Below, piece by piece: positions 25,459 to 43,260 of a DNA stretch of 64,000 bases. The position numbers were made by a program, and so were the translations under genes. Location of the stretch: assembly GCA_963701295.1 (NCBI GenBank), contig OY969585.1:1120001-1184000 (forward strand), given 5' to 3'. The notes beneath the pieces are model-generated. The model was not told the DNA's origin and did no database searches. It saw only the letters and a program-made list of their open reading frames with translations. This stretch comes from Ignavibacteriota bacterium (GTDB taxonomy: Bacteria > Bacteroidota > Ignavibacteria > UBA10030). Numbering within the stretch: position 1 is the stretch's first letter; each line of letters opens with the position of its first letter.

Positions 25459-26028
25459 ATGAAAGAATCGTTTCCCAAAGCAATATTCTCGCGAAAACGG
25501 ATCGCTTTAATAATAGTATTTTTAATTATTACAATATTCGTTATAGGCTATTTATACCTTCAAAGCCAATTCGATTTTCCTCCTCCTATCATAGGAGAAA
25601 AAATGTCGCCAGCGATAGTACAAACACTTGATGGTAAAAATGTATCTATTTATTCATTCCTTGTAAAAAAAAGTATCGTAATGTTCTTTTGGACAGATTG
25701 TTCTCATTGTAAGAATGAAATAACCGATATACTTTCGTTGTATCCTGTTTTGAAAGATTCAATGAATATCGTTGGTATTTCATTTAGTGGTAAAGAACAA
25801 ACTGTTGACTTCATTATAACATCGGGAATTAAATTTCCCGTATTCCGTGATGTGAACTGGGAAGCCAAAAATAGTTTTCATGCAAATGTAACTCCATCGA
25901 TATTTTTTGTAGATTCAAGACAGCGATTAGTAAAGTATAAATTTGGAGAGCAAAGTAAAAAGCAATTGGGTGCAATGTTGCTTTGGTTTGCTAATATAAC
26001 TCCGGATTCAACACTTAAACAATTATGA
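25459..26028 (+). CDS. Membrane-anchored TlpA/ResA-type thiol-disulfide oxidoreductase
   Basis: N-terminal TM; FFWTDCSHC (CxxC); FPV..D; VTPSIFFVD. Confidence 0.85.
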   Translation: MKESFPKAIFSRKRIALIIVFLIITIFVIGYLYLQSQFDFPPPIIGEKMSPAIVQTLDGKNVSIYSFLVKKSIVMFFWTDCSHCKNEITDILSLYPVLKDSMNIVGISFSGKEQTVDFIITSGIKFPVFRDVNWEAKNSFHANVTPSIFFVDSRQRLVKYKFGEQSKKQLGAMLLWFANITPDSTLKQL

Positions 26029-26561
26029 AGCAGAAAAAAATAATTGCCGCAATAGTTTTAATCGCAAGTGTTGCCGGGCTCAGTGCAATCTGCTGGTTTT
26101 TACAAAAGCCGCATGCAGATAGAATACTCTCAGCTTGGATGATAAATGCGGAATACATTGGCGACGACGGTATTGTCATGCAAACAAAGCACAATAGCTG
26201 CGGGCCCAGCGCTCTGAAAATGATATTTGATCACTACAATATTTCTTCCTCGCTGAAAGAGATTGAGCAGAGTGTCAATCTTACCCAAAAAGGTTCGTCA
26301 ATGCTTGCATTGAAGGAAATGGCAGAACTGAGAGGATTAAAAGCAGAAGGATGGCGCTTCACGTTGGAAGATTTTCTGCGTTCCTCATTTCCATCGATTC
26401 TCTATGTGAATAAGGATCACTACATCGTTGCGGATAGCGTATCTGTGGATGGTAATGTATATGTTTGCGATCCTGCTATTGGCAAACTTCGGATATCTAA
26501 GGAAAAGCTCAATAAAATTTGGGGGGGGGCGAAACGTTGGTGTTTGAGAAAAAGTAAATAG
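26025..26561 (+). CDS. Stand-alone C39 family cysteine peptidase with N-terminal TM/signal
   Basis: MQTKHNSCGPSALKMI (Q-x5-C), G.SM.ALK..AE..GL.A, DHYIV, DPAIG; not fused to an ABC transporter; G9 run near the C-terminus. Confidence 0.88.
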   Translation: MKQKKIIAAIVLIASVAGLSAICWFLQKPHADRILSAWMINAEYIGDDGIVMQTKHNSCGPSALKMIFDHYNISSSLKEIEQSVNLTQKGSSMLALKEMAELRGLKAEGWRFTLEDFLRSSFPSILYVNKDHYIVADSVSVDGNVYVCDPAIGKLRISKEKLNKIWGGAKRWCLRKSK

Positions 26562-26586
26562 TGAATAGTAAATAGTAAATAGAAAT
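26553..26586 (+). repeat. Heptamer tandem repeat (AGTRAAT) x4-5
   Basis: agtaaat agtgaat agtaaat agtaaat agaaat overlapping the C39 stop. Confidence 0.6.
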
Positions 26587-26642
26587 AGGAGATCTAAAAT
26601 CGTAAATTGGCAATCGTAAGTCGGAAATTAAGTATAACTCCT

Positions 26643-26742
26643 TGCTCACTGGTTTGTTCATTGCGAATGAAGAAGAAGCACTTGGTTGGCCCCCTTAGAG
26701 CTGAATTGGAATTCGCTGTGAAGAAACGGGCCACAGTGAGCA
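26643..26742 (+). other. About 100-nt imperfect stem-loop upstream of the precursor gene
   Basis: TGCTCACTG (26643) pairs with CAGTGAGCA (26734); GTTTGTTCATTGCGAAT (26652) pairs with ATTCGCTGTGAAGAAAC (26711). Confidence 0.55.
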
Positions 26743-26788
26743 GAAAATAATAAACTAACAATAAACAAATAACATAAAGGAGGTACAT

Positions 26789-26935
26789 ATGAGTGCAGGA
26801 TGTTGGTGGGCTGTAGCAGGAATGGGTGTTGCTATGATGGGTGCCTGTGCTATTACAGGTGGCTTGTCAGCAATCGTTTGGGGCGCTAGTTTGTTGACCT
26901 CAACAGGAGGTCTTATTTCTGGTTGCGGTGGTTAA
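26789..26935 (+). CDS. Putative bacteriocin/RiPP precursor, 48 aa: MSAGCWWAVAGMGVAMMGACAITGGLSAIVWGASLLTSTGGLISGCGG
   Basis: Below the ORF-track cutoff; perfect AAAGGAGGT RBS just upstream; followed by a stem-loop; between a C39 peptidase and ABC exporter genes. Confidence 0.8.
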   Translation: MSAGCWWAVAGMGVAMMGACAITGGLSAIVWGASLLTSTGGLISGCGG

Positions 26936-26946
26936 TCTCAATAGTT

Positions 26947-26977
26947 CTGTTGGGCGGGATGAATTCCCGCTCAACAG
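26947..26977 (+). terminator. Stem-loop after the precursor gene (stabiliser or partial terminator)
   Basis: CTGTTGGGCGGGA-tgaat-TCCCGCTCAACAG, 13-bp stem with one G-U pair; no clear U tract. Confidence 0.6.
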
Positions 26978-27005
26978 TTCAAACATCATTTCTAGAGGAA
27001 ATGAA

Positions 27006-27758
27006 ATGTATAATTTTAAAATATTGAAAATTATTTATGAGTTAAACACAACTCTTTCGAAGCGTGTAAAAAAGTTTGAGTGGTTTTATATCACTTTAAT
27101 TGGTTTTGCCTGCCTCTTCCTTGGAGTGATAATTGGAGTTCCGTTATTTACAAAATTGGTGAAATTTCGGGACGAAATGGACTTCAAAAATGCATTAAAT
27201 TTTATCCCAATTTTAGTTCTCCTAATTGATCTCATCCCAACGATATTGCGCTATCAGTATAAAACACTTATCGAGAAACGTCATTTAAGTATTTTCCCTA
27301 TAAAAAGATTGCACACACTTTGGTTTCATTATTTTCTCTGGCTCTCTGATATTAAAAATGCTACTTATATCGTTTGTTTATTATCATTTCAAATATATTT
27401 CCTTGCTCTGTCTATGTTTATTGGTGCTCTTTTGAGTTCATTGTTATGGTTGTTTTTCTTTCTAACAGTAATAACTGGATATCTCATTTTATTTGAATTG
27501 TATAGTGACGTCTTAATGAAATATCGACAACACGCAATAAGCTTTTTTTTTCTTCTGTTAATCTTGGTGAATGCTATAAGAATTATCGGTCGTGAAGACT
27601 TTTATTCCTCTATTCCAATCACTAGCTTTGTGGGAAACGGGCTCTATGCGCTTTCTGTCGGAAACTTTTCTGTTGCTTCATGGAATCTCTTGCTACTATT
27701 ATCCTCGTTTTCTATAGGCGTGTCACTTCTTATCTTCTTAAACCCTAAGAGACGATGA
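27006..27758 (+). CDS. Putative ABC-2-type exporter permease
   Basis: About 6 TM; LSIFPI motif; start MYNFK after AGAGGA; ATGA overlap with the next gene. Confidence 0.65.
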   Translation: MYNFKILKIIYELNTTLSKRVKKFEWFYITLIGFACLFLGVIIGVPLFTKLVKFRDEMDFKNALNFIPILVLLIDLIPTILRYQYKTLIEKRHLSIFPIKRLHTLWFHYFLWLSDIKNATYIVCLLSFQIYFLALSMFIGALLSSLLWLFFFLTVITGYLILFELYSDVLMKYRQHAISFFFLLLILVNAIRIIGREDFYSSIPITSFVGNGLYALSVGNFSVASWNLLLLLSSFSIGVSLLIFLNPKRR

Positions 27759-28426
27759 CTTATTATCGGTTTATTCTTTTGTTAATAACTCAATTCAAAT
27801 TATTGAATCGCTATTTAAGGATTCCGGTGCTATTTATTCTACTTTTTCTTTATACATTTGCTTTTGCTTTTCTAAAACATGCTTTTGGTAAACCTATTCA
27901 TCTTCCATTCGTAACGATGATTATTAATATTTTATTCATCGGTTTTCTTTTCAGTGAATATTTCATAGCAGGTGTTAATGAAAAGATATTCTACGCAATC
28001 TTTTCATCAAAAATAAGAAATATAGTATTAACGAATAATGTCGCTTTAATGATTATTATTTGGATTTTGCCAATACCAATATTTATCATCGAACTTATTT
28101 ATTTCTCATCAACATGGCATGAAATATATGATGCCTTGCAGTATGTAGTTATAACAACGCCTGGTTATGTTTATCTATTAGACATATTTTCTACATCTAT
28201 AAAAAAACCAACACGATATATTTCTACGTTTGTACAAATGTTTCTTCAAGTAATCAATATTCTTCTTGCATCTACTCCGTACGCAATATTGCACTTATGG
28301 AGCACATCTAATATCCTTTATATAATTGTCTGTCTGTTCATATTTTGTTTTTGGTACTTTTATGGAGTTACAAGTATTGTCAACTATTTTCGTCAGAGTA
28401 TAATCGGAGCTATTCAAAACCAATGA
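27755..28426 (+). CDS. Putative ABC exporter permease / immunity membrane protein
   Basis: About 6 TM; translationally coupled to both neighbours. Confidence 0.65.
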   Translation: MTYYRFILLLITQFKLLNRYLRIPVLFILLFLYTFAFAFLKHAFGKPIHLPFVTMIINILFIGFLFSEYFIAGVNEKIFYAIFSSKIRNIVLTNNVALMIIIWILPIPIFIIELIYFSSTWHEIYDALQYVVITTPGYVYLLDIFSTSIKKPTRYISTFVQMFLQVINILLASTPYAILHLWSTSNILYIIVCLFIFCFWYFYGVTSIVNYFRQSIIGAIQNQ

Positions 28427-29208
28427 ATGCGATTGAAATACAAGACCTACAAAAAACCTATAAGAATAAGGTAATTGCATTAAATTCATTGAATCTTAAT
28501 GTTCCAAAATCTTGTATTTTAGGATTGCTTGGTCTAAACGGTGCTGGAAAATCTACAACCATCAACATACTCGCAGGTATTTTACAGAAAACTGATGGAC
28601 GTATTCTCATTTATGACAAAGAGATTAATGATGATGAGTATGAATACAAGAGTTACACTGGATTTGTGCTCGAGCGACCACACTATTTTGAAAAGCTCTC
28701 CGTAGAAGAGTACTTAGAATTTGTCGGTGCGATGTATGGTCTTGATGTTCACGAAATAAAAAAGCGGACAAATGAGTTACTTGAGTTACTTGAACTTCAA
28801 AGTAATAGGAGGCAATGGATTGAAACTTATTCAGCCGGAATGAAGAAAAAAGTTTCGCTTGCCGCTGCGATCATCCACAATCCCCAATTGTTAATTCTTG
28901 ACGAGCCGCTGGAGGGAATAGATCCAATCTCAGTAAAGCGAATTAAAGATATTCTGAAACTAATGGTACAAAACGGTGCAGCGATATTAATAACTTCTCA
29001 TGTTCTTGATACAATAGAAAAAATTTGCGATGAAATTGCAATAATAAATAAAGGAGAAATCATCTTTCGATCAAAAACTGAAGAGATTCGAGCTAGAATT
29101 AAAAACGAATTTACTCATGAAACCTATCAATCATTGGAAGAAATATTCATCGATGTCGTTAATAATAAGAATGGAGAAAAGCCGAAAGGAAGATTATCAT
29201 GGCTATAG
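28423..29208 (+). CDS. ABC transporter ATP-binding protein
   Basis: GLNGAGKSTT, YSAGMKKK, LILDEP, TSH; start MNAIEI overlaps the upstream stop (ATGA). Confidence 0.95.
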   Translation: MNAIEIQDLQKTYKNKVIALNSLNLNVPKSCILGLLGLNGAGKSTTINILAGILQKTDGRILIYDKEINDDEYEYKSYTGFVLERPHYFEKLSVEEYLEFVGAMYGLDVHEIKKRTNELLELLELQSNRRQWIETYSAGMKKKVSLAAAIIHNPQLLILDEPLEGIDPISVKRIKDILKLMVQNGAAILITSHVLDTIEKICDEIAIINKGEIIFRSKTEEIRARIKNEFTHETYQSLEEIFIDVVNNKNGEKPKGRLSWL

Positions 29209-29909
29209 CACTATCCAATATTGTAAATATATTTGCAATCCCGAATGATGTTTTTCAAAACATTAAAACAAGCCCGAAATGGCTTATAGCATTTTTATTT
29301 ATGTTTATTGTAAGCGCAACCTGTGGATATTTTATGGAACCATTCACACAAAAAGTTATGGAACACACTCTTTCCGCTAAAATGAGCGATGAGCAAGTTC
29401 GGCAAACTTTGGATGTGGCTTCAAGATTTCATTTTCTTTTGCTTTTGTTCTCTGCTGTTCCATTATTTGCAAAATGGCTGTTTATTTCGTTATTCCTATA
29501 TTTGGGTGCAATTCTATTGAATGCAGAAAAAACGAATTTTAGAAATATTTATTCAGCCGTAGTTCATTCAGAACTTATTTTATTGCTCATGCTTATGTTG
29601 AATGTCCTTATTTTGCATGTTAAAGGAGTAGAGTCAGTAAATAATATAACAGATCTTAACGCAATTATTGGATTAGAATACTTTCTTGGAGATAAAATAC
29701 ACAATATACCTTTGTACACTTTCCTTAATAACTTCAATGTCTTTTCGATTTGGTATCTTGTCATCCTCATAATCGGCATATCGGTTATTTGCCAAATAGA
29801 AAAATGGAAATCTGCAATATTAGTCTCATCAGTGTTGTTGCTGGGTGTAGGTGTCCAAGTTGCTTTTGTTTCCTTGTCCGAAAATATGCAGCATATGATG
29901 GGGAGTTGA
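29199..29909 (+). CDS. Yip1 family membrane protein
   Basis: IFAIP..VF..IK..PKW, F..IYS.V.HS, NVFSIW..VILIIG; 5 TM. Confidence 0.75.
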   Translation: MAIALSNIVNIFAIPNDVFQNIKTSPKWLIAFLFMFIVSATCGYFMEPFTQKVMEHTLSAKMSDEQVRQTLDVASRFHFLLLLFSAVPLFAKWLFISLFLYLGAILLNAEKTNFRNIYSAVVHSELILLLMLMLNVLILHVKGVESVNNITDLNAIIGLEYFLGDKIHNIPLYTFLNNFNVFSIWYLVILIIGISVICQIEKWKSAILVSSVLLLGVGVQVAFVSLSENMQHMMGS

Positions 29910-30161
29910 ACGTGGGTAATTGAAATTTTCTTCCGAGTTTGTGAACTACCTGTTTATGTTTATTGACACAATACAACGAGCTATTCATAAAGCCAATCCA
30001 AAATATTATTATCTACAATTTTAACAAATTCAGATGAATTAAGTATAACACTACGATATTCCGTTAATTTCCTAGTTCTAAGCAATTGGGCTTTAGCGTT
30101 AATTATAATCTTTAATTTGGGTTTGGGAATATATATAGCGTGTTGTGATAGTGAATACACT

Positions 30162-32651
30162 ATGAAAAATAAAATAGCATCCTTCTTCGATTATTCATTT
30201 ATAGGGATCACTTACGCCTTAATATTTGCGACAATTTATGGATTGTTCAACCTCAGCATTTTATTTTTTATTGTGTTCGTGATCTATTTGGTTAAAAATA
30301 TTTTCCTCGATGATTTTAACTCTGATATATTCCGTTATACGTGGTTTGATTTAGCGATTCTATTGGTTGCTGTTGCAGAGGGAGTAAGCTATATCGCCTC
30401 AACTTATCATGAGAACAGCTTTTACAGTGTTGCCGATATTTCTTTTTTTATTCTTTTCTATTATTGGGTAAGATTTAATCTAAAGTACGATTATCAGCGA
30501 AGAGCAATATTTTTATTTATAACGGTTCTAGGAGTATATTTATTTTTAGACGGCATGTTGACATTTCTTTCGGGTTACTCTCAAATGAAGTCGGCTGGTT
30601 TAAACGACTTTAATGAGTTCAGGCACCTCCTTTCTTTTGGCTCACCAGTTGGCACACCAACTGCAGAATGGAGTACAATTTATCTCGCATGCCTGCCGTT
30701 TTCATTAATACTATTTTTTACAAAATTCAAAAAGGATAAACGGGAATCATTGCTTTTATTGATTCCGGCAATCTTTATTTTAACAATCCCTGTGATTTCG
30801 TGTTTCAGGGGAATGTATTTTGCTATTGCATCTTTTGCACTCTTTGGAAGCGCTTTATTCCTATTGTATAAACTATCTTCCTTTAGGAAAGTTCTTCTGT
30901 TTAATTCGTTATTTTTCTTTTCGATAGGATTGGTTGTTGTCATATCACCTTTCTTCAAACCTGTATTGACAACTATTTCTATGTTTCAAACTATGTCACA
31001 AGTCCGTAGTTTTGAAGGCAGGAAAAGTCTTTGGAAAACAGGTATCGAGATGATAAAGGATCATCCACTCACAGGAATTGGCTCTAACAATTTTCCAATA
31101 AAGTATTTCTCGTATAAAGATCAAAAAGATAACACACCTTATGCAGGCAGAGTTTTTAACACATTTTTGCAGATTACGATCGAAAAAGGATTGATCGGTT
31201 TGTTTGCGTTTGACATTTTAATAATTGCATTCTTCTTTGTTTCTCACCGAAAGATTAAATTATTAACCGATAATTGGGACCAAAAGGCTACTGTCGTTTT
31301 ATTTATGAGCGCGTTTACAGCAATCATTATAAGAGATTTAAGTTATTCTTCTATATTTTATAATAGAGGGGCAGATCTGCTCATTTGGTTTATGTTTGCT
31401 GACAATGCTCAAGTGCCCAATAATAAAATTTCTTCAGATTCTAGTTGTCGCAAAAAAGCAATCTTACTCTTTCCAGTTCTTATTGGCTCAATTATATTCT
31501 TGCCAATTGCGTTGAATTCTATTCAAAAAGGGAAAGCAGAAAGTCAACTTCTTTCATTTATCGAACAATTAAATCATAAAAAATCTGTTGATGCTCAACA
31601 GAACATCGAATCTGCAATTCAGTTATGTCCAGAGAATGCCTATTATAGAGCCTGCCGAGGATTGTTATCGGATAGAATGATAAATAACAAGTTCAATGTC
31701 GAAGAGTATCTTGAAAATAAATCGTTGTTGACCAAGGCAGACAAAGAGCAGATTAAGATAGGGATTACGTCTTATAATAAAGCGTTAGAGTTAAATCCGA
31801 CTGATGATGAATTCTATCATAATCTTGGATGGTTATATATTATCAATCAAGATGAGAAGCAGGCTGAATATTGTTTACATCAATCAATTCAAATAGACAA
31901 TAATGCGGCAATTCCTCATATCAGTTTAGGGATCTTAAAAGAAAGAAATGGCGAGAAGGACAGTGCTCTAACAGAATATAGTACTGCTATTTGTAGGCTT
32001 CCGAGCATTTTGGATTCACAATTTTTTCTAGATTTGAAGAAACGAATGCCATTAGAATCAAAAGAATTGGTTATTCACAATATACAAGATTTGGAAAAGG
32101 AATTTCAAACAAGCCATGATCCCACAATTGCAGCAAAACTTGCTAAATTTTACCTTTTTCAAGGTGAAAAACAAAAAGCGATACAATTGTTTGAGTGGAC
32201 CACAAAGAAATTGCCGAGTCTTTCTCGCCCATGGCTCTATCTTGGCGATCTATATCAATCTTCTAACGAGGATGAAATGTTCCGATGTTATCAAAAAGCA
32301 GCTTTTCTTGATAAATCAGATGTTTATCCCTTGCTACGATTAGGTCAATTCTATGAACAGAAAAATCGAATCAATGATGCAATACAATATTTCAAACGGT
32401 CGATAAGAGCTTCGAATCTTCAATATGCTTTTCATTCAAGTAAAATTGCAGCCATGTATTGTTTAACTTGCAAGGATGAAAGATTGGTTATAAAAGATTA
32501 CCTTGTGCCCAAAGGATTATTAACCTATTGTGCTCCATTATTTGATATTTCATCTGTTTATGATCGTCTTTCAGGTCTCTATACCAGGCAAGGAAACAAC
32601 AAAAAAGCGGAAGAATATACGAGACTTAGTAAAGAATTGATATTTTATTGA
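30162..32651 (+). CDS. O-antigen ligase-like (Wzy_C) membrane protein with C-terminal TPR repeats
   Basis: About 13 TM; S.RG; R..LWKTGIEMIKDHPLTGIG..NF; N.FLQI.IEKGLIG; TPRs (YNKALELNP...YHNLGW). Confidence 0.85.
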   Translation: MKNKIASFFDYSFIGITYALIFATIYGLFNLSILFFIVFVIYLVKNIFLDDFNSDIFRYTWFDLAILLVAVAEGVSYIASTYHENSFYSVADISFFILFYYWVRFNLKYDYQRRAIFLFITVLGVYLFLDGMLTFLSGYSQMKSAGLNDFNEFRHLLSFGSPVGTPTAEWSTIYLACLPFSLILFFTKFKKDKRESLLLLIPAIFILTIPVISCFRGMYFAIASFALFGSALFLLYKLSSFRKVLLFNSLFFFSIGLVVVISPFFKPVLTTISMFQTMSQVRSFEGRKSLWKTGIEMIKDHPLTGIGSNNFPIKYFSYKDQKDNTPYAGRVFNTFLQITIEKGLIGLFAFDILIIAFFFVSHRKIKLLTDNWDQKATVVLFMSAFTAIIIRDLSYSSIFYNRGADLLIWFMFADNAQVPNNKISSDSSCRKKAILLFPVLIGSIIFLPIALNSIQKGKAESQLLSFIEQLNHKKSVDAQQNIESAIQLCPENAYYRACRGLLSDRMINNKFNVEEYLENKSLLTKADKEQIKIGITSYNKALELNPTDDEFYHNLGWLYIINQDEKQAEYCLHQSIQIDNNAAIPHISLGILKERNGEKDSALTEYSTAICRLPSILDSQFFLDLKKRMPLESKELVIHNIQDLEKEFQTSHDPTIAAKLAKFYLFQGEKQKAIQLFEWTTKKLPSLSRPWLYLGDLYQSSNEDEMFRCYQKAAFLDKSDVYPLLRLGQFYEQKNRINDAIQYFKRSIRASNLQYAFHSSKIAAMYCLTCKDERLVIKDYLVPKGLLTYCAPLFDISSVYDRLSGLYTRQGNNKKAEEYTRLSKELIFY

Positions 32652-32682
32652 CTAAAAGGATGATTTTTTTAGAAGAAAACAG

Positions 32683-34758
32683 ATGAAAAGCATTGTATTA
32701 ATATTAAGGATTATTACACTATCTGTTTCTCTATTAAGTTGTAATAGAACGCCAAGCTTAGTTATTCCAAATGATTTTCAAGGGATATTACCGATAAAAG
32801 AGTGGAAAGTCGTTGGTCCATTTGAATTTGATACCCTTAAACAGAATCCGCATAACACATATTACAACAAAGACTTAGAAAGATATGGCATCAGTGAGGA
32901 ACACTTTTCAGAAAGTGATTTTGAAATATTGAATGATTATAAAATCAAAACTTTTAGTATCCAGACCTATAACTCCCCTGTAAACCTATTTGATCATGTT
33001 GACAAAAATCAGATAAATAATAAAAGTAATTTTTATCTATATACTTCTGTCTACAGTGAAGGTGAGGAAGAAGTTGTTTTCATTTTCGATGGCAGTTGTA
33101 ACTATAAAGTGTGGATAAATCAAAGACAGGTTTTGGAAGTTCTTAACAAAAAAAATACTCATAAAATTGGAGACCGTTTTATAAAAGTTAAACTGCAAAA
33201 AGGTAATAACTTTGTTTTCGCTAAAGTCAATAGAGGTAGCAATCAATTAGCGTGGGGGATATTAATGGTCGGTGCATCGTTAAAGGCTGCACAAAAAATA
33301 TATAAAGAAAATTATCTATCAGACTTTATAAGTGATCCCCTCATTTCAGATTCAATAAGCCTCTATTTAGGCCCGTATTCCAATGCCCGGATAAAGATCG
33401 TAGATAGTGATAATAATGTTAAGTTAAATGATAGTTGTTTCAATAAATATCAAAAAATCTTTTTTATTAAATGCGGCGGAATTCATGACGGACTTTACAG
33501 CAGTAAATTATTTCTTGAGGATGATTCTCTTGAAGAATTTATATATAGAGGTAATATATTCAAATTTATACAAGAATTGAAATTAAAGTCTCAACAATTA
33601 AAATGCGATAATTGTACAATGAATGATGTTAACGCTGCAATTGAGAGGCTAGATTTTTTGATAAATAAACTTGATGAAAGTTCCGAATCAGAAGTTAGAT
33701 ATTATCATAGCAACTTGATATACTATTCAATAAATTTGCATAATTTAATAGGTTATGTTAGAAAGAATAAGCATGATAGATTATATTGTGGTACTTCTCT
33801 AAAAACTTATTTTTCTGAGAAAGATAATGCTGTTTATCATTTTATGTTACACGTTAGTAAATGTTTAATAAATACGCCATCCCTGCCATTAATACTTTTT
33901 GTCCCATATTCACTTGTCGATGAAACTATGCCGAGGAGTTGGTATATAGGCACTTTAGATCAAATTGAGATGGACAGTAAGATGGCTGACGACTACGGTT
34001 TTGCGGTAGCTTGGTTATTTATGAGAGGAACCAAATATACTCCAATTAATGCAGTTGAAGAGGCTAAAAATGTAATTAAAAGAATTAAAAGGGATTATAA
34101 TTTAGATACAACAAAAATATATTTGATCGGAGAATGTGTAGGAGGCAAGAGAGCTTTGTTATTGGCAGAGAAATGTCCGGACCTTTTTTCTGGTATAGCA
34201 GTCAAAGAACCTGTAACAATGGGTGGAGACGAAATAGAAAAACCAATATATTTTGTGCAGAATCTATACAACATACCTACTTGCATATTCCATGGTATAT
34301 ACGATAATGAAGTTCCTATTGAGTGGTCAAGAAAGTTTGCATCCGATGCACAAAAAGTTGGTAAATTTATGAAAGTTGTAGAAACAGAAACAGGACATTT
34401 AAAGCTTTCGAGGGACGAAAGAAGAAATTCCTTCCTTTTTTTAGATAGTTTAAAGACCCATCATCAGGCAAAAAGAATCGATACTATTAAATATTGTACC
34501 TGCGATGTGGGATCCAGTTCTTTATACTGGATTGAAATTTGCAAAATAAAACCTCTTGAAAAGGCAGAAATCACAGCAACATATGATTCTTCAAGTCAAA
34601 ATATCCACGTTGACTGTAAAAATATATTGGAATTTAACGTGCTAACTAATTTGCTTGATTTAACAAAGGGGACTGATTTAACAATTTATGCAAATAATAT
34701 AATTTCCTATCGAGGAACGGTAAATAGAAACAAAGTAAATATTCTTTTAAAAGAGTGA
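32683..34758 (+). CDS. Putative lipoprotein with C-terminal alpha/beta-hydrolase (peptidase/esterase-like) domain
   Basis: LLSC lipobox; W..VGPF, KVWIN, VKL.KG.N beta-sandwich; D..KIYLIGECVGG, FHG.YD..VP, TGH. Confidence 0.75.
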   Translation: MKSIVLILRIITLSVSLLSCNRTPSLVIPNDFQGILPIKEWKVVGPFEFDTLKQNPHNTYYNKDLERYGISEEHFSESDFEILNDYKIKTFSIQTYNSPVNLFDHVDKNQINNKSNFYLYTSVYSEGEEEVVFIFDGSCNYKVWINQRQVLEVLNKKNTHKIGDRFIKVKLQKGNNFVFAKVNRGSNQLAWGILMVGASLKAAQKIYKENYLSDFISDPLISDSISLYLGPYSNARIKIVDSDNNVKLNDSCFNKYQKIFFIKCGGIHDGLYSSKLFLEDDSLEEFIYRGNIFKFIQELKLKSQQLKCDNCTMNDVNAAIERLDFLINKLDESSESEVRYYHSNLIYYSINLHNLIGYVRKNKHDRLYCGTSLKTYFSEKDNAVYHFMLHVSKCLINTPSLPLILFVPYSLVDETMPRSWYIGTLDQIEMDSKMADDYGFAVAWLFMRGTKYTPINAVEEAKNVIKRIKRDYNLDTTKIYLIGECVGGKRALLLAEKCPDLFSGIAVKEPVTMGGDEIEKPIYFVQNLYNIPTCIFHGIYDNEVPIEWSRKFASDAQKVGKFMKVVETETGHLKLSRDERRNSFLFLDSLKTHHQAKRIDTIKYCTCDVGSSSLYWIEICKIKPLEKAEITATYDSSSQNIHVDCKNILEFNVLTNLLDLTKGTDLTIYANNIISYRGTVNRNKVNILLKE

Positions 34759-34760
34759 GA

Positions 34761-34809
34761 AGATTCCCGAAGTTTTCCTATCGGTTCTCGTGAGAAACTT
34801 CGGGAATCT
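34761..34809. repeat. Perfect 15-bp inverted repeat (REP-like or terminator) ending the peptide cluster
   Basis: AGATTCCCGAAGTTT ... AAACTTCGGGAATCT. Confidence 0.7.
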
Positions 34810-34971
34810 AACTAACCTGCCTTGCGTTTGATTGATCTCTCACGTACTTTGATTGCAGTTGTTTCACTCGTGGGGCAATTAGTGATACGATGAGGCGCCG
34901 TGGGGATTCCAATTCGAAGAGAAATTTTAAAGAGAAAAGATATTTTGCAGGGCAAATGAAATTTGTTGGGC
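34806..34971 (+). other. Degenerate attC-like (or attI-like) site at the start of the array
   Basis: ATCTAAC/AACTAAC ... GTTGGGC; GTTGGGCTGCGATT matches 11/14 the reverse complement of the end of cassette 1 (AATTGCACCCTAAC). Confidence 0.4.
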
Positions 34972-36297: not shown

Positions 36298-36307
36298 AGC
36301 AATTGCA

Positions 36308-36489
36308 CCCTAACCAGGCGCTCCCGCCCAACAAGACGGCGGGCAAGCAAGCTAACGGTTGCCAGTTGGGTACGTAAATCATGGCGAGCATAGGTTTAGT
36401 GCAAAATTGAAAGTTATCAGCGTGAACTTGTTTCGTTTAGTACAATTTGAAAGTTTTCATTGCCGCAGCTTAGCCGCCATCCGTTAGGT
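36308..36489 (+). other. attC1 (182 bp) with 25-bp hairpin insert at 36324-36348
   Basis: CCCTAAC-CAGGCGCTC[insert]AAGCTAAC ... GCAGCTTAG-CCGCCATCC-GTTAGGT. Confidence 0.85.
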
Positions 36490-36540
36490 GGCATTGTGAC
36501 GGGCAGCGGTGCTGGATTCAATCAAAGGATACAATACATA

Positions 36541-37212
36541 ATGAATTCTAAACTACTAAGTATTACTCGTATCGTTAGTTTCATCATGACAATATATATT
36601 TGGCGGGTGGTGCAATTCGCAGAGTTTTCTCAACTCGCAGAGTACACTCTGACCATCGGACCAATTTTGTTTGTTTTTCCAGTTGTCTGGATCGGACGGA
36701 AGGCGGTCAACCTCAAACCGACTTTTGAGCGTGTTGCCTGGATTACGAGCTTTGTTCATATCGTCTTAATGGTTTTCTTTGGTGTATCGATCATCGAAGC
36801 CATCAGACTGTTTCAAATCTCGCGTGGCATCACAATACCATTACCTGTCGAAATTGGAACGGTACTCCTTTATCTTACCGGTGCGTGTTTGTCATTGACC
36901 GTGGTAAATCTCGCATTAAGCGGACTCGGAGCACCATTTGCTATTGCATTGAGCAAGCGTCTTGCAAATCGCTGGATGTATCGTTGGACGAGAAATCCGA
37001 TGGTTTTATGCTGTCTCGCCATGCTTCTATCGGCTGGCATTTATTTACAGTCTCTTTATTTTGTTTTGTGGGTTGTTTTACTTGTAACACCGGCGTGGAT
37101 TTACTTTTTGAAAGTGTATGAAGAGCGCGAGCTTGAAATCCGTTTCGGTGCATCATACTTGGATTACAAAACTAATACTTCTTTTCTCTGGCCAAGAATA
37201 CCGAGGAATTGA
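36541..37212 (+). CDS. Cassette 2: PEMT/ICMT-like membrane methyltransferase family protein
   Basis: G.GAP, MYRWTRNPM, EEREL..RFG.SY..YK..T. Confidence 0.8.
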   Translation: MNSKLLSITRIVSFIMTIYIWRVVQFAEFSQLAEYTLTIGPILFVFPVVWIGRKAVNLKPTFERVAWITSFVHIVLMVFFGVSIIEAIRLFQISRGITIPLPVEIGTVLLYLTGACLSLTVVNLALSGLGAPFAIALSKRLANRWMYRWTRNPMVLCCLAMLLSAGIYLQSLYFVLWVVLLVTPAWIYFLKVYEERELEIRFGASYLDYKTNTSFLWPRIPRN

Positions 37213-37234
37213 AATATAATTGTATAACAATGCC

Positions 37235-37454
37235 GCTTAACCAGGCGCTCCCGCCCAACAAGACGGCGGGCAAGCAAGCTGACGGAATGAGCTCATTGCA
37301 ATTAGCATGGCTGGTGGTGGGTTTAAGTTATTATAATTAACTTTTTTGTACCTCGTTGGTTGAGACAAATAAATATGGTTATCAGCATGAACTCGTTTCG
37401 TTTTGTGGTTAATTAAACTTGGTCACGCGGCAGCTTAGCCGCCATCCGTTAGGC
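37235..37454 (+). other. attC2 (220 bp) with the identical 25-bp insert at 37251-37275
   Basis: GCTTAAC-CAGGCGCTC[insert]AAGCTGAC ... GCAGCTTAG-CCGCCATCC-GTTAGGC. Confidence 0.85.
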
Positions 37455-37501
37455 GGCTTCCATAAACTATGGCAGTCAATTAATGAAAAGGGGATCAGAT
37501 A

Positions 37502-39562
37502 ATGAAATTCTTGCTAAGATATTTTGAGAAATTCATATTGTATTTGCAAACCGCCTTTGGGGTGAAACATATTCACACAGTAATCATCCTTTTTCTATTG
37601 TTGATTAACCTAGTGCTGATAGTGGTGGTTTTCCTTCTTTCGAATTCACTCGCCTCTATCTTAACGAATATGGCACTAAATTTCCTACAATTCTTCTTTG
37701 TTGTAGTCCTTTTAGGTGTCATCTTGGGGATCACATCTAATTACTTGTACGACAAAGCTATAGCCGCACTAAATAATCCTATCGGAAGAGCTATAAGCGA
37801 AAGCAGATTGATTAATTACTTCCTACCTGACAAAGAAAGTGAGAAGGAGAGAAGAACAAATTTAACAGTTGAGCGTTTGCCCAGCATGAAAGGCGAAGTT
37901 TGCATATTCGCCATTGCAGCAACAAGCTACCTTCCCAAGAAAGATGATGCAACACGTTTCTCCCAATTATTCATCAGCAAGTTAATTAACAAAGAAATTA
38001 ATTTGCGACTATTATTACTCAATCCCTACAGCCAAGCTTCGAAGTTTAGATATGCGCGAGAAGAAGGTATTGATGTGGATGTTATTTGTGAAAGAGAGAG
38101 GAACGAAATGAGATTTGAGAGATCGGCGCTCTATGGTGACATTGTGAACACTATGGATAAAGTCAAAGAGCTAAGAACTAAAGGGGCCAACATAGAATGC
38201 AGACTTACCAACTTCGAGCCTGCAATATCAATGATGTACACCAGTGACTTTGTTTATATTGATATACTTTCCTTGGGAAGGTTAGATGAAACGACTAAGT
38301 TCACAAAGCAACGAACTACTTTGCCAATCACCGAATTCTCCTCAGATTCTGCGTATTATCAAGTCGCCAAAAGCCATTTTGAATACCATTGGAAATATGG
38401 AATCACACCAGATGAATTTGGTTACTATAAACCCGCTTTACAAGAAAGCTTCTTTGGTTTCTCCTATACGGGCTATAGGTTGATCAAACAGCACGATTCT
38501 TGGATTTCTATTGATCCAGTAGTTGGATGCAACGCGGGTTGTAAATACTGTGTTCTTCAAACAACATTTCGGAATGATATTAAACCGAAAGTCTACGCAA
38601 GTCCGGAGACCATTGGTGATCACCTTCGAGAAAGCAAATTCTATCATGAAGACGAAGTCCTTTGCCTATTCAATTACACTGATGCTCTACTAACCGAAAA
38701 CAAAGAGCGTTTGATAAGTTGTCTTGAGACCCTTAAGGAAAAGCAATTTCGAAATTGGGTATGCATTCCCACAAAACACCCATTTGATGTGAAATTCGCT
38801 CACAAAATAATAGACTCGTATCATCATAACAAGTTGATCTTTCTCATTTCCCTTTCGGGCATGCCAGAAGGATATGAGCCGAGTATTAAATCAGCAGAGA
38901 TTGTTGCCACTATGAAAATGTTGAAAGAACTTAAGATACCACTCATTCACTATTGGAGGCCTGTTACCAAATTAAATTCCAGTGATCAGCATATTGAAAG
39001 TATTTTGGACAAAGTCGATGAGTACGCAAATTGTTCTGTGATTGTTGGCTTAAAGGCTAGCGATGCTCTCAATGACTACTATGTAAATGAGGGGCTTATA
39101 AGTAAGAGTGAATTAAAGGTTCATGGAGATTATTTACCAGAAGGATTCATGAAGAAGGTCAAAAATATTCTGAATCAGAAAGGCAAGGTATATCCTATCT
39201 ATCTTCACGCATCCTGTGCCGTAAGCAAGATAACAAGTCAGCCTGACTATAATGGAACTATGCTCAGAAACGATGTGTGTTCATTGTCTGCTACAGGAGC
39301 CTCATTATGTATTTCAGACCAAGAATCGATATGCCAGAACTTCTTAAAACGCACACAGCAAGAATTTGACAAGACCAAATTCTATGAGATTATTAGAGAG
39401 ATTCTTCCCAGAATGGATATGAAGATTGATGGCAATACGATCGAACTATTGGATCCTGTTTATCAAGAAGATCTTATTTATCTCGTACATCGACTCAGGC
39501 AACCAGTAGTGGCGAAACAGATATTGTACACCAATCAGTATGTTGGTTCAATACTTGCCTAG
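37502..39562 (+). CDS. Cassette 3: TM + DUF5919-like + radical SAM fusion protein
   Basis: 2 TM; LRLLLLNPYS...R..E, ECRL..FEP, HFE.HW (DUF5919/PLD-like pattern); DPVVGCNAGCKYC (CxxxCxxC); YEP, IHYWRPV. Confidence 0.75.
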   Translation: MKFLLRYFEKFILYLQTAFGVKHIHTVIILFLLLINLVLIVVVFLLSNSLASILTNMALNFLQFFFVVVLLGVILGITSNYLYDKAIAALNNPIGRAISESRLINYFLPDKESEKERRTNLTVERLPSMKGEVCIFAIAATSYLPKKDDATRFSQLFISKLINKEINLRLLLLNPYSQASKFRYAREEGIDVDVICERERNEMRFERSALYGDIVNTMDKVKELRTKGANIECRLTNFEPAISMMYTSDFVYIDILSLGRLDETTKFTKQRTTLPITEFSSDSAYYQVAKSHFEYHWKYGITPDEFGYYKPALQESFFGFSYTGYRLIKQHDSWISIDPVVGCNAGCKYCVLQTTFRNDIKPKVYASPETIGDHLRESKFYHEDEVLCLFNYTDALLTENKERLISCLETLKEKQFRNWVCIPTKHPFDVKFAHKIIDSYHHNKLIFLISLSGMPEGYEPSIKSAEIVATMKMLKELKIPLIHYWRPVTKLNSSDQHIESILDKVDEYANCSVIVGLKASDALNDYYVNEGLISKSELKVHGDYLPEGFMKKVKNILNQKGKVYPIYLHASCAVSKITSQPDYNGTMLRNDVCSLSATGASLCISDQESICQNFLKRTQQEFDKTKFYEIIREILPRMDMKIDGNTIELLDPVYQEDLIYLVHRLRQPVVAKQILYTNQYVGSILA

Positions 39563-39604
39563 CGAATTGATGGAAAGACAAACTATGTGAATAAGCAAGT
39601 AACC

Positions 39605-39764
39605 ACCTAACAAATCGTTCAAGCTGACCGTATGAGCGTTAGTACCGATAAGCATGGCTTGCATAGGTTTTGGTTCTTAATAATAAACTTATCAGCATGA
39701 ACTTGTTTCGTTTTGTATATTTTGAAAGTTATCAACGTGGCAACTTAGTTGCCATCCGTTAGGC
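39605..39764 (+). other. attC3 (160 bp)
   Basis: ACCTAAC-AAATCGTTCAAGCTGAC ... GCAACTTAG-TTGCCATCC-GTTAGGC. Confidence 0.88.
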
Positions 39765-39799
39765 GGGCAAAAAACAATTACAAATACAGGAGAATGAAA

Positions 39800-40564
39800 A
39801 TGTATATGCAAAGAAAAAGAATGCTATTCCTTTATTTAATCTTGATGTCAGTCACGATTAACTTACAATCGCAAGATACATCATCAGAACGAAATTCTTT
39901 GAAAGCAGGTGCTTGGGCATTGCAGTTTGGGATTTCCAGTAACTTTACGCTCACATCATTTCAAGGAAGTAATATAGCGTTCAAATATCAATTATCCGAC
40001 AAGAGCGCTCTTCGTGGAGGAATAACAATTAACGGTAGCACTAATGATGGAACCACTTCAAATTCTGGATCAATCGATGATACCAGCTATGGTACTGCTC
40101 CGGGAAGCAGCTCAACGGAATCCGCAACTGCCTCTTTTGTTCTCCAATACTTATGGTATATGAATCCAAACGGCCCCGTACATTTCTACACTGGACTTGG
40201 TCCATTAGTTTCATACAGCTATTCCAAGTATTCCACAAATAATCCTTATTCATCTACTGTATATGATAGCGGAAGTTATCGCGGGTATTGAAATCGAAAT
40301 ATAAGTACTTCAAACTCTACCCAATGGGGATTTGGTGTATCGTGTGTTATTGGCGTCGAATGGTTTGCTTGCCAATGGTTATCCTTGCATGCAGATTACA
40401 ATGAAAGCATCCAATATCGATGGGGTTCGAATTCATCGAATCAAGAATGGTCTTCTTCGACCAGTCCAAATTTTATACCTTCTCAAACTAATAATTCTGG
40501 AACAAGCAAAGGATGGTCTTTAAGCAGTTCTAGCGTTGCATTCGGGCTAAATATATATTTGTAA
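39800..40564 (+). pseudogene. Cassette 4: outer-membrane beta-barrel protein interrupted by an in-frame TGA (40289-40291)
   Basis: Frame continues past TGA: NRNISTSNSTQWGFGVSCVIGVEWF...SSSSVAFGLNIYL*, ending 9 nt before attC4. Confidence 0.75.
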
Positions 40565-40572
40565 ATTTGCCC

Positions 40573-40789
40573 GCCTAACCAGGCGCTCAAGCTCTGCTTG
40601 TCCAGAAGAATGAATCACAGCCGGAGGCCTGAGAATGTCATTGCACGAAGTGCAATACAAATTTATTGGATGCAAAATTCATGGCGAGCAAAGGTTGAGT
40701 ACAAATTTGAAAGTTATCAGCATGAACTTGTTTCGTTTAGTGTATTTTGAAAATTATCAGCGCCGCAGCTTAGTTGCCAATCGTTAGGC
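40573..40789 (+). other. attC4 (217 bp) with internal replacement segment at about 40594-40667
   Basis: GCCTAAC-CAGGCGCTCAAGCT ... GCAGCTTAG-TTGCCAATC-GTTAGGC. Confidence 0.85.
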
Positions 40790-40830
40790 AGCAACACAAA
40801 GTATCTTACTAATATAACTAGGAGAAAATA

Positions 40831-41142
40831 ATGACAAACAATCTTACCCCACAGGAAGAAAAGCAACTTCTTGAGATGCTAAAAAACCAGCCGCGAGATA
40901 TTCGTTCTATCAATATTACTGCAAATCTTTTTCTGGTATTTGGTGGTTGTTTTATAGTTGGCACGGCGTTTTATTTACTCAAACACTTTACGGATAATGT
41001 AGCATATTTTGTAGGTCTACCAAATTTCGTTGGAGGGATGATATTGATCGTTAGTTATATTTTGCTTTCGAGGAGAGTAATCCGAATGAAACAGTTAAAC
41101 TCAATATTATCAAAGCTGCATAAAATGATTATTGCTGCCTAA
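40831..41142 (+). CDS. Cassette 5: hypothetical 2-TM protein
   Basis: AGGAG RBS; stop codon lies inside the attC R'' box (GCCTAAC). Confidence 0.8.
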   Translation: MTNNLTPQEEKQLLEMLKNQPRDIRSINITANLFLVFGGCFIVGTAFYLLKHFTDNVAYFVGLPNFVGGMILIVSYILLSRRVIRMKQLNSILSKLHKMIIAA

Positions 41143-41290
41143 CCAGGCGCTCAAGCTGACGGAATGAGCTGGGTGCGAAATTCATGGCGAGCATAGGTTA
41201 GTACAAGATTGAGAGAACCAGTATGAACTTGTTTCGTTGGTTGCATTACGAAACTTATAAACGCCGCAGCTTAGTGCCTGTCCGTTAGGG
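41137..41290 (+). other. attC5 (154 bp), uninterrupted reference form
   Basis: GCCTAAC-CAGGCGCT[C]AAGCTG[A]C ... GCAGCTTAG-TGCCTGTCC-GTTAGGG; two extrahelical bases at canonical positions. Confidence 0.9.
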
Positions 41291-41313
41291 CTATAATATT
41301 AAAGGAGTTCAAA

Positions 41314-41871
41314 ATGGATAAACATGAATTCTTAAAACAGCAATATATTTCATTACGAGAGGAAATTAAGGAAACTAAGGCACGTATTTTTAAAACCTTA
41401 GGTTTCGGTATTATTGCTGTTCCTGCTGCTAATTTTCTAGGAGAATCCTATCACATTGATGTTGTTATTCTATCGTTACCATTACTTGTCATTGTTCTTG
41501 CATTTCTATATTTATCAGAGAATAATGCTAAGATGAGATGTGGTAGATTTATAAGAATCCATATTGAAAGTTTATTCAAAGATATCCCTGGTTGGGAAAC
41601 CTGGCTTGAAAATCCTGAGGAGGAATATCAAACAAGAATTGTTGATATATATCTTGATGCTTGTTTTTATATCCTATTCTTCATTTACTATGTTGGTTCT
41701 GTTTTTCTTGAAACAAGATTTTCAATTCAAAATTTTCATCTTTTGATTACTGCTATGATACTTGGCTTTTACGTAGCAATTGGTATTTGGTTCTTAATAC
41801 ACTTAATTACACATATTCAAGTCTCTACGACAATTAAAATGGATAAGGACAAATTACAACATAAGCCCTAA
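41314..41871 (+). CDS. Cassette 6: hypothetical 4-TM protein
   Basis: AAAGGAG RBS; QYISLREEIK...R.GRFIR..IE......GWE; stop inside the R'' box. Confidence 0.8.
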   Translation: MDKHEFLKQQYISLREEIKETKARIFKTLGFGIIAVPAANFLGESYHIDVVILSLPLLVIVLAFLYLSENNAKMRCGRFIRIHIESLFKDIPGWETWLENPEEEYQTRIVDIYLDACFYILFFIYYVGSVFLETRFSIQNFHLLITAMILGFYVAIGIWFLIHLITHIQVSTTIKMDKDKLQHKP

Positions 41872-42082
41872 CCAAGTGCTCAAGCTCGGCTTGTCCAGAA
41901 GAATGCATCACAGCCGGAGGCCTGAGAATGTCATTGCACGAAGTGCAATACAAATTTATTGGATGCAAAATTCATGGCGAGCAAAGGTTGAGTACAAATT
42001 TGAAAGTTTTCAGCATAAACTCGTTTCGTTTTCAGCAACTTGAAATTTATCAGCGCCGCAGCTTAGCGCCGATCCGTTATAC
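41866..42082 (+). other. attC6 (217 bp), near-duplicate of attC4
   Basis: CCCTAAC-CAAGTGCTCAAGCT ... GCAGCTTAG-CGCCGATCC-GTTATAC. Confidence 0.85.
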
Positions 42083-42152
42083 CGCTTGCGTTTTAAGGTA
42101 AGTTGGCCGAATTTAGCAACACTATTAATAAAATGAAATAAGGAGATAAACC

Positions 42153-42527
42153 ATGAATATTTTCTTATGGGTTCTTCAAATTCTTCTTGCCTTGCATACC
42201 ATCATGGGTGCAGTTTGGAAGTTTTCCAATTCGGAACAAACCGTACCTTCCTTGAGTACAATTCCTCATGGATTTTGGCTGACGTTGAGCGTCATTGAGC
42301 TGCTTTGTAGTTTGGGTTTGATCCTCCCTGCACTAAATAAGCGACTAGGCGTCCTGGTGCCGGTCGCGGCGGTTTGTATTGCAGCTGAAATGCTGCTCTT
42401 TTCCGGATTGCATATTTACTCCGGTGACACGAATTACAACCAAATGATATATTGGCTCGTCGTGGCTGCCATATGTTCGTTTATTGCTTACGGTAGATTT
42501 GTGTTGAAACCTCTTAGACGTCCTTAA
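42153..42527 (+). CDS. Cassette 7: DoxX family membrane protein
   Basis: MNIFLWVLQILLA....GA.WK, IELL..LGLILP, FIAYGR. Confidence 0.85.
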   Translation: MNIFLWVLQILLALHTIMGAVWKFSNSEQTVPSLSTIPHGFWLTLSVIELLCSLGLILPALNKRLGVLVPVAAVCIAAEMLLFSGLHIYSGDTNYNQMIYWLVVAAICSFIAYGRFVLKPLRRP

Positions 42528-42573
42528 ATAAGAAGTCAATCAATATGAGTTATGCAAAAAAATGTCGCAAGCG

Positions 42574-42761
42574 GTATAACCAGGCGCTCAAGCTGACCGG
42601 ATGAGCGCCCGCCCAAAGATAAACATGGCGGGTAAATGGGCACGTTAAGCATGGCGCGTAGAGGTTCAGATGTTTAATAATAAACTTTTCAGCATGAACT
42701 TGTTTCGTATAGTACATATTGAAAGGTATCAGTGGCGCAGCTTATGCGCCATCTGTTAGGG
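42574..42761 (+). other. attC7 (188 bp) with CCCGCC/GGCGGG hairpin at 42608-42632
   Basis: GTATAAC-CAGGCGCTCAAGCTGAC ... GCAGCTTA-TGCGCCATCT-GTTAGGG. Confidence 0.87.
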
Positions 42762-42786
42762 CGCATTCAAAATAAAGGAGAATTAA

Positions 42787-43203: not shown

Positions 43204-43260
43204 CCAGGCGCTCCCCGAAAAAAGAATTCGGGGCAGGCAAGCTGTCCGAATGAGCATTGA
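43198..43260 (+). other. attC8, left half only, with 25-bp hairpin insert at 43214-43238
   Basis: ACCTAAC-CAGGCGCTC[insert]AAGCTGTCCGAATGAGC; no right arm found before rarD. Confidence 0.7.

Follow-up and report, generated by a model that had tools for sequence, protein, structure and literature searches.

Double-glycine leader peptides and C39 cysteine peptidases are the textbook partners of cytoplasmic peptidase-containing ABC transporters (PCATs), and mining tools rely on this link. Class IIa microcins and class II double-glycine bacteriocins (e.g., MccV, with CvaB, LahT, and ComA as PCATs) are described as having a leader with hydrophobic residues at positions -12, -7, and -4, the C39 catalytic residues, and a hydrophobic, Gly/Ala-rich core with disulfides (PMC10233263, PMC6363468); the PCAT C39 domain reads Leu(-12)-X3-Glu(-8)-Leu(-7), and LahT150 has a groove for residues -4, -7, and -12 (PMC6363468). 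In Bacillus subtilis, SdpC carries a Sec signal and a pro-region and yields SDP, a hydrophobic disulfide peptide of ~42 aa, and the Yip1 protein YknW is part of the ABC transporter (YknWXYZ) that is reported to protect Bacillus from this Sec-exported peptide (PMC6818787, PMC4887032). The C39 peptidase FapD of the Fap amyloid system is described as active in the periplasm, on Sec-exported substrates (PMC5557850), and FilB of the Fil pilus, compared here by model name, is a second stand-alone C39 outside the cytoplasm. Here we analysed a cluster of nine open reading frames (ORFs) at positions 25459-34758 of a 64,000-nucleotide stretch (the window, whose coordinates are used throughout) of contig OY969585.1 of an Ignavibacteriota bacterium (assembly GCA_963701295.1). 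An earlier reading of the same letters, hereafter the original prediction, had taken it for a peptide-maturation cassette with a free, anchored C39 peptidase, a CxxC oxidoreductase, a small precursor, and a Yip1 protein. The cluster is a real, conserved member of a widespread family, and this core of the prediction is borne out by conserved synteny.

The comparison with these systems sets the locus apart in several ways. In microcins the leader is N-terminal and the C39 domain is fused to a PCAT; in the cassette the leader lies behind a Sec-type signal, the C39 is separate and anchored, and a membrane fusion protein is not among the conserved neighbours. The double-glycine leader, L(-12)/E(-8)/L(-7), was found in the relatives, and the N-terminal leader with a C39-PCAT fusion was not. 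The relatives' architecture fits the SdpC/SDP pattern, with the disulfide deduced from cysteine parity. It differs in that the second cut is predicted to be made by a C39 at a double glycine, in a dedicated CxHC oxidoreductase, in an ABC-2 rather than a MacB-type permease, and in diderm hosts; SdpA, SdpB, and SdpI were not seen, and in Pfam and NCBIfam neither 18 precursors matched SdpC nor the cluster genes SdpA or SdpB. Compared with Fap and Fil, the cassette substrates are short cores with paired cysteines and the partners are an oxidoreductase, Yip1, ABC-2, and MauE proteins. The peptide family and the RNA ahead of it are apparently undescribed, as literature searches (most subscription journals and all supplements lying outside their scope) gave no description; RNA-motif or RiPP-mining supplements (ribosomally synthesised and post-translationally modified peptides) could already contain the cassette or the RNA.

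A conserved cassette around an anchored C39 peptidase

All nine ORFs share one orientation and lie in AT-rich DNA, as the original prediction had described. Their span has a GC content of 33.3%, compared with 42.4% for the 3.64-Mb genome and below every one of 391 bins of the same size; the C39 gene, at 42%, is unlike this AT-rich span. Domain scans returned AhpC/TSA, Peptidase_C39, ABC_tran, Yip1, Wzy_C with TPR, and a weak alpha/beta-hydrolase match, in line with the functions first assigned, and gave no Pfam or NCBIfam match for the small ORF or for two membrane proteins (m1 and m2). Four junctions overlap (oxidoreductase/C39, m1/m2, and m2/ATPase by 4 nt, ATPase/Yip1 by 10 nt), in keeping with the proposed translational coupling; this does not extend from the small ORF to m1, which most likely starts at 27006 with a hairpin in between. 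The Shine-Dalgarno sequence of the small ORF is, as had been noticed, the strongest of the nine starts (-12.9 kcal/mol, the others at -6.0 kcal/mol or weaker). Promoter and terminator scans gave numbers at chance (43 against 43.6 expected and 5 against 4.5 expected, respectively).

The stand-alone C39 (26025..26561, plus strand, 178 aa; PF03412, E 3.7e-27) has an N-terminal membrane anchor and the key residues Q53, C59, H132, and D149, and its last ~10 residues are out of frame. It is the only PF03412 match in the genome, in which no PCAT was found. Among the aligned C39s, the Gln, Cys, and His are kept in 44/44 and the Asp in 43/44, the N-terminal transmembrane segment (TM) is present in 44/44, and flanking charges are positive-inside, which predicts an outward-facing domain, in 39/44. 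The closest solved structure is LahT150 (E 5e-20). Against family models the window C39 reaches 67 bits for PCAT, 43 for FilB, and 38 for FapD (the FapD and FilB cutoffs being 330 and 475, respectively), and in a tree of 52 domains, with FapD and FilB outside it, the cassette C39s branch apart from 21 PCAT-fused domains (100/100). Overlapping its start lies a membrane-anchored oxidoreductase of thioredoxin fold (25459..26028, plus strand; PF00578, E 3e-13; one N-terminal TM), with a CSHC active site and a predicted role as periplasmic disulfide catalyst; its match to the ResA model (E 4e-16) is below cutoff. A CxHC motif occurs in 44 of 67 relatives (CPHC in 22, CSHC in 15). The CPHC motif is linked to DsbA-type oxidases.

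For the distribution of the cassette, 53 C39 relatives of similar length were collected from a protein collection, and 44 of them, aligned, led to 30 genome and 80 metagenome loci. Collapsing near-identical C39s left 83 non-redundant loci (L numbers below); these are related, so the counts are not independent. The cassette genes thus co-occur elsewhere, as had been expected, and the small ORF keeps its position. The oxidoreductase is directly upstream of the C39 in 52 of 53 loci with room, and downstream come the small ORF and then Yip1 (31 of the 32 loci with at least 6 kb downstream). In the same 32 loci, other partners are an ABC ATPase (15 loci; within 6.5 kb of the C39 in 14), a MauE/DoxX protein (14), an exported protein of ~170 aa from families that we call f5 and f6 (16), and a DUF5686 protein (8). 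No locus belongs both to the 14 that have a near ATPase (within 6.5 kb) and to the 16 that have f5/f6. Among host-family genomes, 22 of 86 carry the C39 (E up to 1e-20), as do 2 of 15 other genomes of the genus. The named relatives are metagenome-assembled genomes labelled Bacteroidetes or Ignavibacteria, and the C39 was also present in two genomes from another family of the same phylum and in loci labelled Acidobacteriota, Aminicenantia, and Eubacteriales.

One locus, L099, is from a close relative and sits at the corresponding chromosomal position (76% identity for the M1 peptidase and 87% for the hydrolase), and there the precursor is of a different type, f5 replaces the ABC genes, and the C39 and oxidoreductase are only 52% and 29% identical. 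Swapping of this type fits toxin-protection modules. The f5 and f6 proteins (e.g., L115 2584-3105 and L056 10967-11500) are two related families that follow the precursor where ABC genes are absent; they are candidate immunity proteins without a Pfam or NCBIfam match, and the ESM Atlas look-alikes of the f5 protein were all unnamed. Some loci hold tandem cassettes with different cores, a duplicated C39, or arrays of two to four precursors, one of them Pro-rich (L047 633-6112, L149 10001-10983, L066, L067, L146, and L147).

Precursor peptides and their predicted maturation

A filter for small ORFs with a ribosome-binding site (RBS) was applied to C39 copies with at least 1 kb downstream, duplicates included, and gave a precursor candidate in 85 of 90. 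On inspection four of the five misses have a precursor, and the fifth (L052) is broken. From 77 non-redundant candidates 63 were kept; of the others, 11 scored poorly at the site, two were truncated, and one was misplaced. These ORFs, of 68-116 aa, begin with a Sec-type signal, continue with a double-glycine leader, and end in a hypervariable hydrophobic core. Lys or Arg occurs at positions 2-5 in 62/63, a hydrophobic h-region in 63/63, and a lipobox in none of the 63. The leader site lies at residue 40-67, behind the signal-like segment in 63/63, with L/M at -12 in 57, E/D/Q at -8 in 50, M/L at -7 in 59, I/V/L at -4 in 42, G at -2 in 61, and G/A at -1 in 54 of the 63. As the site was chosen by these same features, the informative test is the shuffle control: 52 of 77 candidates reach a leader score of at least 9.5, and 300 shuffles averaged 1.0 and peaked at 5. 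The leaders match the motif read by LahT150-type PCAT C39 domains. The window's own ORF has no such leader.

The cores measure 21-73 aa, with a median GRAVY (grand average of hydropathicity) of 1.05, and fall into 26 clusters. By Cys count, 21 cores have two, none has three, 33 have four, one has five, seven have six, and one has eight. The filter required at least two Cys, which favours even counts for any residue, and a plain even-versus-odd binomial therefore overstates the case; the informative part is that none has three and 33 have four. When 18 precursors were compared with Pfam and NCBIfam, none reached a cutoff, and the leaders matched PF10439 and TIGR04149 weakly, below cutoff. No curated precursor family was thus matched, in line with the earlier judgement that the system fits no recognised class. 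A match to the JUQZ-1/BLB8 model covered signal regions only and was set aside. The best ESM Atlas matches of a precursor (0.80) are a lead only, and the AlphaFold model of the L089 precursor, of low confidence (predicted local distance difference test, pLDDT, 61; predicted template modelling score 0.30), was not used. In L042, L043, and L072 a polar C-terminal tail of ~20 aa past the last Cys is conserved while the cores differ, and could be a follower peptide.

Taken together, cleavage and disulfide formation probably take place in the periplasm. In the proposed route, the precursor, judged by its signal peptide, would cross the inner membrane via Sec; the N-anchored, outward-facing C39 would bind the L/M(-12), M/L(-7), and I/V/L(-4) leader and cut after Gly-Gly or Gly-Ala, as motif and topology suggest; and the anchored oxidoreductase would form one to four disulfides, as suggested by Cys parity and the CxHC motif, and would be recycled by the MauE/DoxX protein where this is present. 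Yip1, together with either the ABC-2 exporter or the ~170-aa exported protein, never both, would protect the producer, by analogy with YknW and SDP. An exporter for the peptide itself had been foreseen in the original prediction; the ABC-2 exporter is indeed a cassette member in about half of the loci, and it is not supported as the export route of the precursor. Since the complete precursors bear a Sec-type signal, and an ABC gene is missing from 17 of 32 loci, the ABC-2 exporter and Yip1 probably serve self-protection rather than precursor export. An antibacterial role, argued by analogy, seems fairly probable, and on balance we favour, with some reserve, the whole reading of precursors exported by Sec, cut by C39, and locked by disulfides in the periplasm to become likely membrane-active antibacterials, the window precursor being a likely non-producing remnant.

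Several observations weigh against this reading. The topologies were assigned from hydropathy and charge only, and for the oxidoreductase the charge signal is weak (35 of 56 positive-inside, 11 reversed). The strict [AVS]xA cleavage motif is present in only 27 of 63 signals (53 with a loose motif), and for that reason some may be uncleaved anchors. Other residues are also even-biased under the filter of at least two (Trp in 20 of 23). A conserved outer-membrane channel is missing (DUF5686 occurs in 8 of 32 loci, as above), and most cores are neutral or anionic, unlike cationic bacteriocins; class IIa microcins can be anionic according to PMC10233263.

The same export, cleavage, and oxidation would also serve if the mature peptides were envelope or fibre subunits, or signals, instead of antibacterials. 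We consider this unlikely, though it is the best of the alternatives: a periplasmic C39, FapD, serves an amyloid fibre system, a strong RBS with RNA structures on either side points to production in bulk, tandem arrays of two to four precursors occur in some loci, and the cores are mostly not cationic. Against it, no FapF/Fil-type barrel was present among the conserved neighbour families scanned, the C39 scores higher with the PCAT model than with those of FilB or FapD, the cores are hypervariable and are swapped together with the downstream module, and for a signalling role no sensor kinase is conserved, an AraC gene lying upstream in 4 loci.

If the favoured reading is true, the recognition code of the PCATs would operate beyond the inner membrane, on small disulfide peptides, and at least 26 unrelated core types from little-studied diderms become accessible, along with a small C39 that stands alone and has a defined, predicted substrate. 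Going further, we tentatively propose, with somewhat less than even confidence, a new class of Gram-negative disulfide bacteriocins that bypasses the PCAT: export would be by Sec, leader removal and oxidation would be carried out by two anchored periplasmic enzymes, a lineage-specific pseudoknotted RNA, acting as a stabiliser, a switch, or a self-cleaving element, would set how much precursor is made and would mark exported Cys-rich peptides genome-wide, and the cassette would be a swappable toxin-protection module across several phyla.

A structured RNA ahead of the precursor gene

The original prediction had described the region upstream of the small ORF by its RBS and had missed a conserved RNA at 26641..26744 (plus strand). 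In an alignment of relatives this 5' region of the precursor gene covaries as a long interrupted hairpin with a predicted pseudoknot, in which the apical loop (26687-26692) would pair with a 3' bulge (26728-26733). Across 15 aligned intergenic regions the conserved block ends ~30-45 nt ahead of the precursor start. Covariation was evaluated on 50 non-redundant sequences aligned without structure: pairing cells make up 90.4%, against 78.1% in shuffles and 37-47% in slid controls, and 34 of 40 pairs show changes on both sides. For the loop-bulge helix, 260 of 300 cells are Watson-Crick, against 210 +/- 4 in 5000 shuffles, a statistic that ignores relatedness, and C-G, G-C, and U-A swaps were seen. 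Rfam gave no match at the element, either in the window (E up to 10) or in 14 relatives (E up to 5). The topology, with an apical loop folding back near the base of a long arm, is that of c-di-GMP-II and SAM-I riboswitches and the twister ribozyme, and only the topology is shared: the RNA has no Rfam match, its symmetric, purine-rich internal loop differs from a standard kink-turn, and, with the RBS ~30 nt away from the structure, no switching platform is evident. A kink-turn had been considered for that loop and was dropped when the consensus proved symmetric.

The RNA profile gave 97 matches in 92 loci and a single copy in the genome, and the RNA stays with the precursor where other DNA parts the precursor from the C39 (L045, L077, L089, and L100). 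Matches to a covariance model were found in 27 of 86 host-family genomes, among them 20 of the 22 C39 carriers, at E below 1e-9, and in 3 of 151 and 5 of 151 genomes of phylum and class samples, respectively; the distant loci to which the model was applied (those labelled Acidobacteriota, Aminicenantia, or Eubacteriales, and several without a label) gave no match. The RNA is thus a lineage-restricted, uncatalogued structured RNA with strong covariation, and one that is directly testable. Of 15 whole-genome matches outside the training set, nine lie ahead of a leader-bearing precursor and two ahead of a peptide with a signal and six Cys; the others precede a frameshifted copy of the six-Cys peptide (one) or a larger exported protein (two), or are truncated without such a gene (one).

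Some of these copies deserve separate mention. In L206 (~7467-7667) and L207 (minus strand, upstream of 7139) the RNA stands ahead of 66-aa peptides that combine a signal with six Cys, lack a double-glycine leader, and are encoded near ABC, Yip1, or MauE genes; these peptides constitute a second family. In the stretch fetched for these two loci no credible C39 was found, the single match being marginal (E 9e-4) and on the Yip1 gene. The RNA of L209 (7037-7155, minus strand) precedes a 254-aa exported protein, and a partial copy in L215 precedes a 360-aa lipoprotein-like protein. In one genus, leader-bearing precursors have no adjacent C39, yet a stand-alone C39 is present elsewhere in four of five genomes; this genus and the leaderless L206 and L207 loci without a C39 are natural checks that fit the proposed pairing of leader and peptidase.

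The Shine-Dalgarno sequence AAGGAGGT (26777..26784, plus strand) is orthologous to the RBS of full-length precursors. Since it is outside the RNA structure, stabilisation of an mRNA segment is modestly favoured over a switch or a ribozyme. On the 3' side, a strong hairpin without a U-tract follows the precursor (26947..26977, plus strand; -31.6 kcal/mol over 70 nt after the stop, z -6.9), and z is below -2 in 44 of 68 relatives. The pseudoknotted RNA, the usual 3' hairpin, and the strong RBS would together stabilise the mRNA segment and yield peptide in excess of the enzymes. An RNase J model was not found in the genome and RNase E/G was, which is compatible with 5' protection and is no test of it. 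Between the C39 stop and the RNA, at 26562-26625, low-complexity GTAAATA-like units were observed that were not seen in 14 aligned relatives.

The window copy and its neighbouring genes

The small ORF of the window (26789..26935, plus strand) encodes 48 residues, hydrophobic (GRAVY 1.19) and uncharged, with three Cys. It had been taken for a typical precursor, and it corresponds only to the core of a 90-aa precursor known from relatives: it is 74% identical to residues ~44-90 of the precursor in L089 and the relatives P0055-P0057. Collinearity with 14 relatives extends over the RNA, the RBS, and the start codon, after which the relatives enter the signal peptide and the window enters the core; the junction matches the Met that the L089 type has at core position +2. 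Where the window core has its third Cys, its relatives have Val. A nine-G run (26521..26529, plus strand), the only one in the genome and two bases longer than in 14/14 aligned relatives, shifts the C39 C-terminus, so that the frame departs from the family consensus and the conserved last residues are replaced. With its start codon placed right at the core, the ORF would give a product that neither enters Sec nor serves as a C39 substrate. From these departures the window copy is probably damaged and likely a non-producing remnant whose protection genes, which are intact, have been kept. It is a poor choice for expression, for which the full-length loci L089, L054, L074, and L057 suit better.

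The deletion and the G run could be assembly errors, in which case the locus would be intact in the living cell, with ~130 bp missing from the assembly and two G added. The genome is a single contig, all other core genes look intact, and the C39 of P0004, which keeps the consensus frame, has the same Trp-Gly-Gly context at its end. Long-read assemblies often contain homopolymer errors; a clean in-frame loss of ~130 bp without a repeat is atypical of them. The third Cys departs from the relatives independently, and broken precursors recur in other assemblies (L052, L204, and L213). The reads of one DNA run shared 9% of sampled words, and their contigs covered seven short pieces, none over the precursor or the G run. 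On this evidence we regard an assembly artefact as distinctly improbable.

A slightly poorer candidate is a working leaderless derivative, in which the Met inside the core would start translation, export would be by the ABC-2 exporter as phenol-soluble modulins (PSMs) are exported via PmtCD, and the C39 and the disulfides would be decaying. In its favour, the deletion preserves the reading frame and reaches to the Met of core position +2; no damage is seen in the RNA, the RBS, the hairpin, or the exporter genes; the C39 C-terminus is shifted; the core contains a third Cys that is unpaired; and PmtCD is among the matches of m1, which has a type V exporter fold. PSM substrates of PmtABCD are leaderless. 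On the other side, an ATG-to-ATG loss is also the expected outcome of a short-homology deletion, no other leaderless, signal-less copy was found among the 97 RNA matches or the homologs of the core, and the 48-aa ORF is missing from the public protein collection. The window ORF has neither leader nor charged residue and all relatives have leaders, and the leaderless bacteriocin class is described as cationic (PMC6131525).

The exporter itself begins with m1 (27006..27758, plus strand), for which the most likely start at 27006 gives a 250-aa form that is in the public collection, in which the 276-aa form is absent; at 50% clustering it has 168 relatives. Its AlphaFold model (pLDDT 94, from 108 sequences) points to an ABC-2/type V exporter transmembrane fold. 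VIA ranks 1-18 were all ABCG/ABCA/CcmB/NosY/Wzm/PmtD-type (best Z 13.2, marginal for helical bundles; root-mean-square deviation 4.2 over 227 aligned residues), and the top Foldseek row was PmtCD (E 0.25). Identity to PmtABCD chains is about 12-14%, and ABCG-type chains score higher by Z. The hydrophobic m2 (27755..28426, plus strand) is likely a second permease subunit, as proteins of ~520 aa fill the position of m1 plus m2 in some loci; no profile match between m1 and m2 was detectable (probability 0.1). They are followed by a DrrA/PmtA-like ABC ATPase identified by domain scans (28423..29208, plus strand; PmtA match below cutoff) and the YknW-like Yip1 membrane protein (29199..29909, plus strand; PF04893, E 1e-14; YknW model NF052650, E 2e-19, below cutoff).

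Beyond Yip1 lie two genes that had been proposed as tailoring enzymes and that are not part of the core. The first encodes a Wzy_C (O-antigen-ligase-like) and TPR protein (30162..32651, plus strand), found in 2 of 37 loci with room after Yip1 and, among 85 family genomes, as one full-length match and one fragment; it may have an optional role. The second, traveling with it, encodes an exported alpha/beta-hydrolase with a weak domain match and a G-E-C-V-G-G nucleophile elbow (32683..34758, plus strand). A circular or glycosylated bacteriocin tailored by these two, as originally suggested, is very improbable: both full-length Wzy/TPR homologs do directly follow a cassette Yip1 (L054 and L099), but these are 2 of 37 informative loci and have unrelated core types, the gap from Yip1 to Wzy is 252 nt, no DUF95/SpoIIM match was found among the nine genes, 108 m1 relatives, and 21 neighbour representatives (Pfam), nor a GT2 glycosyltransferase among the window genes or the conserved neighbours scanned, and the glycocin (sublancin-type) partners GT2 and PCAT are missing from the cluster. 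On the question of head-to-tail ligation, the N-terminal residues of the cores are varied and often charged.

Cys, not Ser, occupies the G-x-X-x-G-G elbow of the hydrolase in the window, in L099, and in a distant L054 homolog (12233-14389). At the end of the hydrolase gene is a short inverted repeat (34760-34813), and L099 has two similar copies ahead of its cassette (3620-3670 and 4990-5043). Just downstream of the cluster, at 36300-43260, seven to eight copies of a 120-180-nt repeat start near TAAC and end near CCGTTAGG, spaced one gene apart (965, 2310, 1025, 501, 792, and 679 nt), and this arrangement looks like an integron-type attC cassette array. Inside it, 37502-39562 encodes a protein of 686 aa that has a membrane segment at its N-terminus and matches radical SAM weakly (E 0.0014).

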